Source: a virus (lineage: Duplodnaviria; Caudoviricetes). From it: 64,000 bases of DNA. The notes below the pieces were generated by a model. That model saw only the letters and a program-made list of their open reading frames with translations. It was not told the DNA's origin and made no database searches. Made by a program: the position numbers and the translations under genes. Within the stretch, counting starts at the first letter, position 1. Each line of letters starts with the position of its first letter. The stretch lies in IMG/VR virus record IMGVR_UViG_3300021426_000005; one strand, 5' to 3'. Of the stretch, positions 31,544-38,990 are shown piece by piece.

Positions 31544-32830
31544 TTAGAATAATTTTCTGCTTTGGGATCTGATATACTCAGCGACCCTACGCTTGCCTAT
31601 ATCTACATAAGGTTCTGATTCTGAATTCATCAGTTCCATGTCAATGTAGGAAAGCTGATAGTCTTCTTCCCTATTCAGCTTTTCGCAGGCTACTGCATGG
31701 GTACATGATCCAGCGGTTATGTCGATAGTCATACCATGCTTCGGTGTAAGTAGCTTTATTAGCCACATTATCAGCTTTACTGGCTTTATGGTCACATGGG
31801 GATTTGCAGTACCATCTTTCAATATCTTTTCATCATTAGCTGGCTTAGGGCAGTATTTGAACACCGGGAACATTCTGCTTCCACCACCAATATCCCCACA
31901 GCCACCGTGATTGCATATATCAACTTCAGAACTTGGATTATACTGGCTATAACACCGTTTACCCATATTACCAAGGCTGTTTAATCCTGATCCTCCGGTA
32001 GATCTAGTTACACCAGTTTCAGCATCAATAGCTTCGCACATATCATCGGAGATAAGTACATTAGGAGGAAATCTCCCGGCTTCATTAGCGGGCATAGCTT
32101 TATCTTCTGCAAAGCCACCATATATGTGACCTTCCTTTTGACTATAGTTGTTAGTAGGATTCTTAGATGCTTTAGCATTTATCATATCAATATCTTCCTT
32201 TGATATGGGAACTCTGCAAGCATCTATGTTCATAGCTCCGCAACCGTGCTGCCTTATGTTATCGGTATAGGTACCGTCTAAAGGCTTCTGGAATACAGCT
32301 ATCGGTTCATGAGCTGGTTTCAGGCCGGATGTTTTCCAACCATTCCAGATCTCAGCAAGTTCAGGGTCATCTTGTTTATCGAATAGCTTGCCTATATCCT
32401 GGGACTTTGGCATTCCAGATAAGAAGATCCAGTCAATTTCCTCTACGACCTTAAACCCAGCATCTTCAAAAGCACACTTCATACGATGATTTGTCTTAGG
32501 ATGTCCGAATATAGCAACATAGCCACCGGGCTTTATCTTTGATATAAGGATCTCAGCCCTATCATAGCACCAATTATAAAAGGACAATCCGTCCGAATGG
32601 GTATTAGCATAGAATGCCGGTCTGCGCTTTCCAGAATATCCAGTACCAGGAAACTGACCATGTATACCTTCGCCAGTATTCCAGTGTTTAGAAGAATCCC
32701 AGTTCTTACCCATGAATTCGATTGCATAAGGAAAATCAGATATGCAACTATCTACAGAGTTATCGGATAATGTTCGTAATAGTTCTATGTTGTCTCCGTG
32801 TAAGATCTTACCGGTCATGTCACACCTCAA
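31544..32830 (-). CDS. DNA amino-methyltransferase (N6A/N4C, beta class)
   Basis: SDFPY (DPPY-like), LKPAHEPI, H.T.KP..L..WL, DITAGSCT; ends RKLF. Confidence 0.85.
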   Translation of the reverse strand: MRCDMTGKILHGDNIELLRTLSDNSVDSCISDFPYAIEFMGKNWDSSKHWNTGEGIHGQFPGTGYSGKRRPAFYANTHSDGLSFYNWCYDRAEILISKIKPGGYVAIFGHPKTNHRMKCAFEDAGFKVVEEIDWIFLSGMPKSQDIGKLFDKQDDPELAEIWNGWKTSGLKPAHEPIAVFQKPLDGTYTDNIRQHGCGAMNIDACRVPISKEDIDMINAKASKNPTNNYSQKEGHIYGGFAEDKAMPANEAGRFPPNVLISDDMCEAIDAETGVTRSTGGSGLNSLGNMGKRCYSQYNPSSEVDICNHGGCGDIGGGSRMFPVFKYCPKPANDEKILKDGTANPHVTIKPVKLIMWLIKLLTPKHGMTIDITAGSCTHAVACEKLNREEDYQLSYIDMELMNSESEPYVDIGKRRVAEYIRSQSRKLF

Positions 32831-33612
32831 AATAATTTATTTGTTTTCATATCAACTACATCTGTAGTTGTTACTTCTGAAAGAACTTCATCGGATTCGA
32901 TTCTTTCTTTCGCTATATGGAAGTAGTTTTCGTCTAATTCAATTCCTACGAAATTTCTTCCAAGGGCTTTAGCTGCTACACCGGTGGATCCGCTTCCCAT
33001 ACAATTGTCAAGCACTGTATCCGCTTCATTGGTAAATGTACGAATAAGATTTTCTAGCAATGCGATAGGCTTTTGTGTAGGATGAAGGTTATTGTTCAAA
33101 CAATCCCTTTGATACTTCCATACTTGTGTTGGGTATCGCCAACCGGTATCCTTATATTCTCGCACTTTCTTTGCTTGACTATCAGTAAGTCTACCTAGAC
33201 GACCGTCCTTGACTTTATTTGTTACAGATTTACCTTCATGTTTCATCATCTGCGGGTTATATGTAGGTTGTTTATCATAGAATATGCTAATTGTTTCCAC
33301 GGTTTTACCAACACGCTTTTTTACCTGATGAATATTTGTAAGGCGTTCTTTTTCCCAATAAATATCGTATTTATACCAATTGAGGTTGCTCAGTCGAAGA
33401 TAGCTACTAAATGGCTCTTGTCCAAACAAAGCAATGGTGCCGTTGGGTTTTATAATACGCTTATATTGATCCCATAGCTTATCAAATGGAATCACAATAT
33501 CCCAAGCACAAGCTGTTGTGCCATAAGGCAGGTCACACAATATCATATCTATGCTCTTATCGGGTATCTGCTTCATTATTTCCAGACAATCTCCCTGATA
33601 CAATTCAACCAC
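32827..33612 (-). CDS. DNA amino-methyltransferase (beta class)
   Basis: DLPYG, HPTQKP, DNCMGSGSTG; ends KTNKLF. Confidence 0.92.
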   Translation of the reverse strand: MVELYQGDCLEIMKQIPDKSIDMILCDLPYGTTACAWDIVIPFDKLWDQYKRIIKPNGTIALFGQEPFSSYLRLSNLNWYKYDIYWEKERLTNIHQVKKRVGKTVETISIFYDKQPTYNPQMMKHEGKSVTNKVKDGRLGRLTDSQAKKVREYKDTGWRYPTQVWKYQRDCLNNNLHPTQKPIALLENLIRTFTNEADTVLDNCMGSGSTGVAAKALGRNFVGIELDENYFHIAKERIESDEVLSEVTTTDVVDMKTNKLF

Positions 33613-33626
33613 CGTAAATTCTCCTA

Positions 33627-34547
33627 CTAAAACAATGTATTAACCTTCTTAGGCTTGCTTAGAATATATTCTGGTGTATAATTAGCCACCAAAATCTCTT
33701 CGGCATGGCTATTTCCTTTACCACAGGCTGAATATGTGTGGTTGGTAAACCAGTTTACATGATATGAATTATTAGATATCCATTTAGCCAAAGTGTCATT
33801 GTACTTCCCCTTATTGTTTAATACAGAGGATAGTGCCCAACGGATACCCTTAGCAGACATAGCATCCAGCAAGTCGTACAAATCTAATTCATCTTCTATA
33901 GACCAGCCCTTACGACCGTCCCTATTTTCATTGTATGTCGCAGTAGTTCCAGCATATGGTGGGTCACAATAATAGAAGGCATCAGAATTAGCATCTGATA
34001 GTATATTTCTAAAATCCAGACAAGTGTACTCAACCGAATCTTGTTTGAAAAAGCTACAGCCATTTTCCACCCCAAGTATTCGATTAGAACTGAAGTAATC
34101 TGCCCCAAGTGGCATATTGAATTCACCATCAGAATTAAATCGTATCATTTGAGAGAAGGAAAATATTGACAATGTGAATAATTCAATAGGGAGTTTGGAT
34201 TTGTTATATGAATTTCGCAGCTTTTCATATCCAGATTTATGTTGATCTCTAATATCTTTCATGACAGAATGTCTCTCTGTAAGTGGCAAATCATACTTTT
34301 TGATTAAATCATTTACTTGGCAAATTATATCTTCGGAAGAATGATTTTTGAAAAGCGAGTATAAGGAAATGATGTGATCATCAATATCATTCAATTGATA
34401 CGAATTCGCTTGAACATTCATAGCCACGCATCCGCTTCCACTAAAGACATCAACAAATCTGTTTATATCTTTTGGAAACATTCTAATCAACCCTGACTTA
34501 ACAAGTCTAGTCTTACCGCCCATATAAACTATAGGTGATGTAATCAT
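33627..34547 (-). CDS. Dam-like (alpha class) DNA adenine methyltransferase
   Basis: YMGGK, DVFSGSG, RFNSDGEFNMP, DPPY; ends KVNTLF. Confidence 0.92.
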   Translation of the reverse strand: MITSPIVYMGGKTRLVKSGLIRMFPKDINRFVDVFSGSGCVAMNVQANSYQLNDIDDHIISLYSLFKNHSSEDIICQVNDLIKKYDLPLTERHSVMKDIRDQHKSGYEKLRNSYNKSKLPIELFTLSIFSFSQMIRFNSDGEFNMPLGADYFSSNRILGVENGCSFFKQDSVEYTCLDFRNILSDANSDAFYYCDPPYAGTTATYNENRDGRKGWSIEDELDLYDLLDAMSAKGIRWALSSVLNNKGKYNDTLAKWISNNSYHVNWFTNHTYSACGKGNSHAEEILVANYTPEYILSKPKKVNTLF

Positions 34548-34775
34548 TATTTCACCTCAAATACAAGTGGATCTGCAAAAAAATCTGATATAACTATATC
34601 ATCAATCGGATTAAGTGTGGTCTCCATAGCTTTCAGGATATTTTTCTTAGGAATATCCGGAGGTATAATTTTAGTACGAGCTTCAAGTCTCTCAGATACT
34701 TGCTGGAGTTCTTCATGAATAGCCTGTTTTAGTTCGTCTAAAGACATATTATTGAGTTCTTCTTCGGTATACATA

Positions 34776-37897: not shown

Positions 37898-37983
37898 TGG
37901 TACTTGAGGTGGGAATTGAACCCACAATGTCTTTCGACACTTGTTTTTGAGACAAGCTCCTATGCCTATTCGGATACTCAAGC
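37898..37983 (-). tRNA. tRNA-Leu(CAA)
   Basis: CTTGT-CTCAAAA-ACAAG; long variable arm; CCA. Confidence 0.92.
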
Positions 37984-38079
37984 ATATGCCCGGTTTCAGA
38001 CCGCAGCTATTGCCACGGTCCGTAACCGGAATCTGAAAAGGTGGTGTATTACCGCCGTACAAAAGGAGAAAACGGCGAT

Positions 38080-38164
38080 TGGTGGGGATAACAGGGATCG
38101 AACCTGCATGAATTTCTTCACCAGAACCTAAATCTGGCGCGTGTGCCAATTTCGCCATATCCCC
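38080..38164 (-). tRNA. tRNA-Leu(TAG)
   Basis: CCAGA-TTTAGGT-TCTGG; GGGGATA/TATCCCC acceptor; CCA. Confidence 0.92.
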
Positions 38165-38165
38165 A

Positions 38166-38990
38166 CTAGAATAATCGGTTTGTTGCTCTGGCTGGCTTAA
38201 TGCTATCTAAACGGCTTTTTGCAATCTCACAATACTCCGGAACTGCTTCAATCAACACCCAGTCCCTTCCTAAACTCTGTGCTACTTTTGCAGTAGTACC
38301 GCTACCACCAAAGGGATCTAGAATTAAGTCACCTGGATTACTCCATGAAATGATGTGATCTTCAACTAGTTTCTCCGGAAAGATTGCAGGATGCTTGTAT
38401 GCGATTTCATCAGAAGTAGCAAAGCCTTTGCCGTTAGCATAGCGCCATATGTTCGTTCTGATACCGAATTCACTGATAACCTTTCTACCTTTATTTGTAA
38501 GACTACCGTCCTTTTCACGCCGGGTAACTTCACCATAAGTAGATGTTCCAGCCCATTTGTTAGGCTTATCTTTTATAAGGTTTATGGTTTTAGGTCTCCC
38601 TTTGCTTAGAACGAACATATACTCAAAGGCGTTGAAATACCTGTTGGGGTGGGGCGGTCCGGAGCCGGCCTTCTCATAGATGATCACATCGTACATATCG
38701 AAGCCGATCTCCTGGAAGAACAGCGCCTGCTTGAAGCTGGTCAGGGTCTTGCTGCCCTTCAGGGTCTTATCCCCTACCACCCAGACCACGACTCCGCCGG
38801 GCTTCATCACACGGTAAAGCTCCCTGGCGATGGTCTGGAAGACCTCCATATCCCACGAAGCCACGCCCTCGTAGTCTCTTAGGTCGTCGTAGGGCGGACT
38901 AGTCACCACCAGGTCGATGCACTCCGCCGGGAATTCCTTCAGCAGCCGGTCGGATCTGTCGTTGAAGATTTTATTTACAAAATCAAACAT
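38166..38990 (-). CDS. DNA amino-methyltransferase (SPPY, beta class) inside the tRNA cluster
   Basis: VTSPPY, HPAIFP, DPFGGSGTT; ends ATNRLF. Confidence 0.92.
   Translation of the reverse strand: MFDFVNKIFNDRSDRLLKEFPAECIDLVVTSPPYDDLRDYEGVASWDMEVFQTIARELYRVMKPGGVVVWVVGDKTLKGSKTLTSFKQALFFQEIGFDMYDVIIYEKAGSGPPHPNRYFNAFEYMFVLSKGRPKTINLIKDKPNKWAGTSTYGEVTRREKDGSLTNKGRKVISEFGIRTNIWRYANGKGFATSDEIAYKHPAIFPEKLVEDHIISWSNPGDLILDPFGGSGTTAKVAQSLGRDWVLIEAVPEYCEIAKSRLDSIKPARATNRLF

Follow-up and report, generated by a model that had tools for sequence, protein, structure and literature searches.

Why do DNA methyltransferases (MTases) of unrelated classes, encoded by one phage, end in almost the same five residues? 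The question arises from IMGVR_UViG_3300021426_000005, a 64,000-nt stretch of DNA (hereafter the window) that is one part of the genome of a ~145 kb gut phage of the Caudoviricetes. Five MTases encoded there (M1 to M5, Table 1), which fall in three classes and all lie on the minus strand, finish with a short peptide closing in Leu-Phe, here called the tag. An earlier note on the window had read the tag as a docking signal, added to acquired MTases, that recruits them to the sliding clamp. Comparison with MTase homologues and related phages makes it fairly probable that the tag is a portable terminal clamp-docking peptide which couples DNA modification to replication, and all of the comparative tests run favour such a docking tag.

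The whole genome was rebuilt by walking an ENA metagenome scaffold with exactly the same genes, and was then joined to the window. The result was a circle-equivalent of 144,869 bp with 206 open reading frames (ORFs), and the overlaps between window and scaffold contained 0 mismatches. The ENA scaffold (scaffold_102, 147,009 bp) starts at window position 36523 (break 36522/36523). Read through its other end, it exceeds the 144,869-bp circle by 2,140 bp, which may reflect a terminal overlap or an indel. Megablast against GenBank phages gave no relative. The relatives compared were the clade genomes G1, G2, G3, and G6 and the genome G4, together with L201, a syntenic island from another sample. 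G6 is a 148.5-kb contig that was binned with a Ruminococcus metagenome-assembled genome, and its major capsid protein is 69% identical to that of this phage.

A terminal peptide shared by methyltransferases

Written as the pattern [STVQ][NRHK][KRT]LF, the tag occurs six times in the proteome of 206 ORFs, each time at the very end of a protein. At the C-terminus only 0.004 occurrences were expected, and about 1 was expected anywhere in the proteome. The carriers are five of the seven MTases and one of the 199 other ORFs (Fisher p = 4e-8), the latter being an ORF of 69 aa. The tag is enriched in these DNA MTases, and enrichment in DNA-acting proteins was a point on which the earlier note had let its proposal depend. 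The five MTase ends and the AKTNKLF end of the ORF with its stop at 63871 were all as that note had described them, and the two N-terminal look-alikes that it had listed were likewise confirmed, namely MMLNKLF at the start of the NPPF MTase (M6, true ATG at 35950) and MKANALF at the start of a ligase Ia-domain (Nlig-Ia) protein.

The six tags differ in their codons (TTA/TTG, TTC/TTT, and AAA/ACA/CGA) and between them end at each of the three stop codons; what follows varies as well, being a terminator, a ribosome-binding site, or a tRNA. Because codons, stops, and downstream sequences differ, selection acts at the protein level and not on a DNA repeat. Two further ORFs that end in ..ILF, at 7900-8301 and 19317-19661, were rejected as tag carriers, as they did not fit the tag and had no family match. 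Since ORF 7900-8301 keeps ..IILF in the relatives G1 and G2, this end probably belongs to the fold of the protein.

Known ligands of the bacterial clamp bind it with peptides of the QL[SD]LF type, in many cases at the extreme C-terminus (Pol II and Pol IV) or at the N-terminus (Hda). The motif (QL[SD]LF or QLxLxL) is carried by Pol II, the alpha and delta subunits of Pol III, Pol IV, UmuC, MutS/MutL, Hda, and LigA, and Q-[LI]-x-L-F is the textbook pentapeptide that binds the bacterial beta clamp. All six C-terminal tags have the L-F part of this motif, that is, Leu or Met followed by Phe or Leu at positions 4-5. They also sit on exposed, unstructured termini, with tails that lie outside the catalytic fold and are missing from most homologues. 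When M4 was modelled with AlphaFold2 (AF2), the only low-confidence part was residues 231-235 (pLDDT 49), whereas the core scored >90. No PIP box (QxxLxxFF) was found in the tails. The tags are thus like the beta-clamp motif in being short Leu-Phe-ending peptides on disordered termini, common to many enzymes that reach, or in our case would reach, one DnaN-type cleft.

Tails in homologues and in related phages

Homologues of each tagged protein were compared with respect to where their sequences stop. The closest IMG/VR homologue of M1 ends in ..VESIVKNMS and has no LF. Most of the 80 IMG/VR homologues of M2 stop at about residue 238-240; the exceptions end in ..AQLKLF, ..PQTKLF, ..TQLDLFEVVG, ..KQMTLFEEEDE, and ..QQTLFTM. 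For M3, homologues in the fetched loci stop at ..EVLITNY, at about residue 290, and no relatives were found in IMG/VR. Among 120 close homologues of M4 (68-100% identical), 90 stop just past the conserved ..HIVDICEE helix, and 30 are extended, with the ends PKRLF, SKKLF, QKKLF, RKRLF, KQIKLF, KQISLFDI, and TQITLFDI. More distant cluster representatives of M4 end in QLELF, QPRLF, QQRLF, QNKIF, or QLNLL, and its relatives in IMG/VR are almost all untagged. The homologues of M5 mostly stop past the ..EIAK.RI helix, and a few carry QLSLF.. or QMKLFV, their ends including ..SQLSLFSEVKEI and ..KQMKLFV. At the other terminus, M6 has an extension of ~35 aa with LNKLF at residues 3-7, and its homologues have other starts (..KDWTGN..), without NKLF. 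Homologues of the 69-aa ORF in G1, G2, and G4 agree with it over the first ~52 aa; where it has the linker and TNKLF, they have another C-terminal domain, whose NUMOD-like match is weak and below threshold. Judged by where the homologues stop, the tails are additions to the MTase fold, and since both linkers and motifs varied, the comparison points to repeated acquisition.

The earlier note had named the absence of the tag from bacterial homologues as a check. Most of the homologues compared here do stop at the fold, but a minority carry LF tails, including canonical clamp motifs. We counted such ends among ORFs of at least 100 aa from 105 fetched phage loci. Of 117 MTase-like proteins, 11 had the motif Qxx[LMI]F in their last 14 residues, compared with 2 of 1173 others; when proteins ending in [LMI]F were added, the counts were 13/117 and 12/1173 (p = 3e-8). 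These sets consist of related proteins, so that there were fewer independent events than the counts suggest. About 1 in 10 phage MTase homologues carries a clamp-type tail.

The tag was also followed through the relatives. In G6, two MTases end in QKRLF, one of which is the 60%-identical orthologue of M4, and a neighbouring protein of 135 aa has the end KSRIF. Four MTases of L201 end in PKRLF, TKRLF, HKKLF, and HKRLF, and its Ia-domain protein starts with MKAKSLF. G3 has no homologues of the window MTases, and there SKKLF or MKLF ends were found on two NUMOD4-HNH endonucleases and on a TGT/DpdA-like protein. The latter (L211:17203-18234, phrog_887, E 1e-33, ending in ..RSKKLF) is encoded directly after the delta'-like gene and belongs to a family that we take to be the kind of enzyme placing 7-deazaguanines into phage DNA. 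This suggests that G3, without the MTase island, has a clamp-tagged DNA transglycosylase. G1 and G2 have neither the MTase island nor tags.

The position of the peptide is not fixed. Core members of the Nlig-Ia family have no extension, members in this clade start with MK[AS]K[SP]LF, and others carry the peptide at the C-terminus as ..KKKLF, ..KRKKLF, or ..GTKRLF. The family-A polymerases (PolA) of five clade phages start with MGLF, MTGLGLF, MMSLGLF, ..IQLGLF, or MSLF, a conserved N-terminal (Q)LGLF-like peptide that resembles the C-terminal kind of E. coli Pol II. As far as these alignments go, the motif appears to work from either end, N- or C-terminal in Nlig-Ia proteins and N-terminal in M6 and PolA, and the tag looks like a clade-wide, genome-specific, portable module. 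Because it stands at either terminus, on unrelated folds, and in one flavour per genome, it behaves as one would expect of a short linear docking motif whose receptor is encoded by the genome.

The phage clamp and the alternatives to it

A candidate receptor is encoded in the replication block, which lies outside the window, ~5 kb past its left edge. This block contains genes for a DnaB-like helicase, a Toprim primase, an SSB-like acidic-tail protein, PolA, a 374-aa protein, a PD-(D/E)XK-like protein, a DnaX-like (gamma/tau-like) ATPase, RecA, a possible delta, and a delta'-like protein. The AF2 model of the 374-aa protein had a pLDDT of 88.5, and all of its listed Foldseek matches (at least 500 at E <= 0.001) were bacterial beta clamps, the best with E 1e-22 and a TM of ~0.7. 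The top match was PDB 7evp. These matches span the full length, with 386-411 alignment columns, as expected for a beta clamp of three domains (~120 aa each) in a chain of ~370 aa. A profile built from eight homologues matched PDB beta clamps with E 9.5e-6. The protein itself lies below the Pfam DNA_pol3_beta cut-offs (13.7 and 14.3 bits vs 24.4 and 27), its G6 orthologue reaches 22.5 bits, and no PHROG family was assigned. By predicted fold and context, the 374-aa protein is a divergent DnaN-type clamp.

The set of replication proteins listed above recurs in G1, G2, G3, and G6, and the clamp is its least conserved member, with 30-37% identity vs 54-73% for PolA, DnaB, RecA, and the gamma/tau-like ATPase and 35-45% for the delta'-like protein. 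The earlier note had mentioned T4-type clamp ligands; the phage clamp is of the beta type, and no gp45-type clamp (DNA_PPF or gp45-slide_C), gp44/62 loader, or family-B polymerase was found among the precomputed Pfam hits for the genome parts outside window 11853-53495. An alignment of the delta-like subunit gave no clear conserved LF motif. Complex prediction for the phage clamp with M2 residues 232-261 gave a score of 0.02 (mark 0.32) and was counted neither for nor against binding.

The replisome genes show some further features. At L126:10001-19872, a hybrid replisome (PolA with a divergent clamp of the beta type and a loader of the DnaX/delta' type, not PolB with gp45 and gp44/62) occurs in a phage with T4-like capsid genes (Gp23, gp13, S77 protease, and T4 portal). 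The DnaB-like helicase (L126:6773-8122) ends in ..DDDIEF, resembling the C-terminal tip of SSB (DDDIPF), and the 233-aa putative SSB (L126:9230-9931) ends in ..EEAPDFD; these acidic ends may be further tail-mediated contacts within the replisome.

Taken as a clamp-docking signal, x-[N/H/R/K]-[K/R/T]-L-F would be a short, portable motif of the sliding-clamp type on an exposed tail or N-terminal extension, and a beta-type clamp would take up its Leu-Phe in a hydrophobic cleft. The receptor would most likely be the phage's own divergent DnaN-like clamp, encoded next to PolA and the loader, or possibly the host DnaN. MTases of several specificities would thereby be concentrated on freshly replicated phage DNA, where restriction sites could be methylated at once. 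From the comparisons we infer that the tags physically bind a clamp, which clamp receives them, and what the phage gains, namely faster or more complete protection from restriction.

Besides the relatedness within the enrichment sets, several points weigh against this explanation. Gln, the most conserved position of the canonical motif, is absent at position 1, where the six tags have S, T, V, T, T, and T; it is present in the relative G6 (QKRLF) and in many homologues (QLKLF, QIKLF, and QLELF). Since this Gln is missing and the other tested features are present, the tags would be a divergent variant of the beta-clamp motif and not a plain member. The polymerase, nucleases, and recombinases of this genome have no C-terminal tag. 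Two MTases also lack one, the 581-aa C5 enzyme having none and M6 only its N-terminal look-alike, and the tag is therefore not required for MTase function as such. In addition, a terminal hydrophobic dipeptide could serve another receptor, and clamp binding by the tags is itself deduced from sequence comparison. The proposal of the earlier note, a docking tag added to acquired MTases, thus gained from the add-on tails, the canonical motifs in homologues, the phage's own clamp and loader, and the other DNA-acting carriers in relatives, but its expectation of C-terminal tags on the polymerase, ligase, and nucleases failed in this genome, where the polymerase has an N-terminal GLF.

Other explanations were weighed. 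In a variant of the clamp model, the tag would bind the host DnaN and not the phage clamp, so that the enzymes ride leftover host clamps or also titrate the host clamp. The L-F core is common to host-type motifs, and two complete ~35-kb phages with an MTase ending in QLKLF or in QLDLFE.. gave no DnaN match, from which it would follow that their tails must use the host clamp. That negative is weak, as a PF00712 search misses divergent clamps and was also negative for the clade relatives, which do encode one. We regard host binding as unlikely, because the clade always encodes its own clamp and loader, because the clamp is the fastest-evolving part of the replisome, and because the tags have drifted from the canonical Q-L-x-L-F to a basic, genome-specific x-K-K/R-L-F, as expected for a private receptor. 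Many bacterial C-degrons end in hydrophobic residues, and the tags are terminal, exposed, hydrophobic at the end, and confined to one functional class. A host or phage ClpXP, ClpAP, Lon, or tail-specific protease might thus read the basic-Leu-Phe end and limit the lifetime of the MTases, for example to spare host DNA or to time their activity. Such a degron, the main alternative in the earlier note, deserves little credence: the same motif stands at the N-termini of Nlig-Ia, M6, and PolA, where no C-degron could act, other phages have the canonical QLxLF at orthologous positions, the tag is unlike ssrA-type LAA ends, and the tagged proteins of relatives are again DNA-acting enzymes.

Docking on another hub (SSB, helicase, RNA polymerase, a scaffold, or a packaging factor) or a sorting signal unrelated to the clamp would suit the indirect link between tag and clamp and the more basic character of the tags in comparison with known clamp motifs, and the acidic ends of the DnaB-like helicase (..DDDIEF) and the putative SSB (..APDFD) suggest other tail-mediated contacts. 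However, it leaves unexplained the exact beta-clamp consensus at the same site in orthologues and the (Q)LGLF of the polymerases, and we consider it very improbable. That a shared DNA element, such as translational coupling, a terminator, or a recombination scar, merely happens to read ..KLF before a stop is practically negligible as an explanation. M2/M1 and M4/M6 are indeed tightly packed, with a ribosome-binding site just past the stop, but the same peptide occurs in other codons on unrelated genes of other phages, and the synonymous codon and stop variation and differing downstream contexts of the six tags led us to reject a DNA-repeat or coupling artefact.

The methyltransferase island and the meaning of the tags

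Four of the tagged MTases lie in a minus-strand operon running from 36972 to 31544, with a promoter-like site at 37018-36989 (-). The gene order is a 102-aa ORF, M4, M6, a 65-aa ORF, the ligase Ia-domain protein, a 75-aa ORF, M3, M2, and M1. M5 sits 1.2 kb upstream of the operon, embedded among nine tRNA genes (window 37089-40271, minus strand), which include a tRNA-Leu(tag) of 95 nt at 39600-39694 with an unusually long body.

Table 1. Features of the MTase island, other proteins named in the text, and the putative clamp. Positions are those of the window unless a locus is given.
Feature	Position	Strand	Evidence and remarks
Intrinsic terminator, strong	31514..31538	-	closes the MTase operon; 10-bp stem, 6 GC pairs, T-rich tail
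M1, N6/N4-type DNA MTase, 424 aa (ATG at 32818)	31544..32818	-	Pfam PF01555 E 2e-18; PHROG 67
M1 tag SRKLF (..SQSRKLF)	31547-31561; stop 31544-31546	-	
M2, N6/N4-type DNA MTase, 261 aa	32827..33612	-	Pfam PF01555 E 2e-34
M2 tag TNKLF (..MKTNKLF)	32830-32844	-	tail ~22 aa
M3, D12 (Dam-like) adenine MTase, 306 aa	33627..34547	-	Pfam PF02086 E 2e-30
M3 tag VNTLF (..KKVNTLF)	33630-33644	-	
Stand-alone ligase Ia-domain (Nlig-Ia) protein, 107 aa, N-terminal extension MKANALF	34776..35099	-	Pfam PF22745 E 4e-28 from residue 17
M6, NPPF adenine MTase, 220 aa, starts MMLNKLF	35288..35950	-	PHROG 799 E 6e-55 from residue 34
M4, small C5 cytosine MTase, 235 aa	35960..36667	-	PHROG 757; homologues carry PF00145
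M4 tag THKLF (..SKTHKLF)	35963-35977	-	
M5, N6/N4-type DNA MTase, 274 aa	38166..38990	-	Pfam PF01555 E 5e-43
M5 tag TNRLF (..RATNRLF)	38169-38183	-	
69-aa ORF, 3' part in window (whole gene L081:9782-9991)	63871..64000	-	ends AKTNKLF; tag 63874-63888
Untagged C5 MTase, 581 aa, beside serine integrase	26347..28092	-	PHROG 116 E 1e-82; ends ..ALDPIE
Putative clamp, 374 aa	L126:12589-13713		fold and context

The surroundings of the island contain two anti-defence candidates, an AcrVA2-like protein (29863-30948, minus strand), whose L201 homologue carries PF26125, and an Ocr-like protein (51004-51984, minus strand; phrog_2568, E 1e-12). In L201, an IS605 OrfB/TnpB-type gene (L201:13840-15236) occupies the position of the M6-like MTase, of which a 32-aa remnant (MKDWTGN..) is left, and there has therefore been turnover within the MTase island. 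A strain variant of this phage has an additional 650-aa MTase (L082:2019-3971; DUF7487, with a faint N6_N4_Mtase match) inserted beside the major capsid gene, and this enzyme has no LF tag. An intein lies inside the SNF2-type helicase (61237-63495, minus strand), which in strain variants is 605 aa (no intein), 752 aa, or 957 aa (intein and LAGLIDADG) long. A large serine recombinase is encoded at 24560-26311 on the plus strand (PHROG 95, E 1e-101) of this ~145-kb phage, and IMG/VR classes the relative G3 as a provirus; on these two grounds the clade, with its T4-like capsid, may be temperate.

Clamp-binding peptides are a known way for replication and repair enzymes to share the sliding clamp. 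To our knowledge, bacterial and phage DNA MTases are not among the accepted clamp clients, and eukaryotic DNMT1 on PCNA is the only textbook case. The likeness of the tags to the beta-clamp motif is strengthened by MTase homologues elsewhere that carry its exact consensus. They differ in that the clients here are DNA MTases (in relatives a TGT/DpdA-like enzyme and HNH endonucleases), in having T, S, or V for Gln and a basic character, and in a likely receptor that is a very divergent phage clamp. In the T4 family, gp43, gp33, and gp55 bind the phage's gp45 clamp with a C-terminal hydrophobic peptide, non-polymerase proteins included. A shared C-terminal hydrophobic peptide for the phage's own clamp is what we propose here too. 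The capsid genes of this phage are T4-like, whereas the replisome consists of PolA, a beta clamp, and a gamma/delta' loader.

DNMT1 is recruited to PCNA by a short motif, and newly replicated DNA is methylated (PMC9690074). An MTase held on a sliding clamp by a short motif, as proposed here, is alike by analogy only; the clamp is PCNA and not of the beta type, the motif is a PIP box (QxxLxxFF), the purpose is epigenetic maintenance and not presumed anti-restriction, and in the phage one tag serves five to six enzymes. Phage proteins that contact a DnaN-type clamp have also been described, namely the Twort-like Gp168 (PDB 7evp) and MuC of phage Mu (PMC12867686), but these are inhibitors or transcription factors on the host clamp, not a tagged family of DNA-modifying enzymes. 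A search of the full-text literature, with incomplete coverage, found no paper that describes a bacterial or phage DNA MTase as a clamp ligand, and clamp-docking tags on phage MTases are apparently unpublished.

A broader possibility, which we put forward tentatively and at somewhat less than even chances, is that the clade runs a private code. A fast-evolving beta clamp and a co-drifting basic x-K-K/R-L-F tag, unlike the QLxLF of the host, would gather all phage DNA-modifying enzymes (MTases of any class, TGT/DpdA-like enzymes, and ligase Ia domains) at phage forks and off host DNA, and clamp-tethered modification would be a common, unrecognised anti-restriction strategy.

The tag is a simple sequence mark by which replisome-associated accessory enzymes may be predicted in metagenomic phages. 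As a small, portable peptide it may also serve to attach enzymes to a clamp, perhaps in a way orthogonal to the host motif. Should the tags bind the clamp, protective DNA modification in phages would be coupled to the replication fork, and this would explain how several orphan MTases could fully protect a rapidly replicating 145-kb genome.

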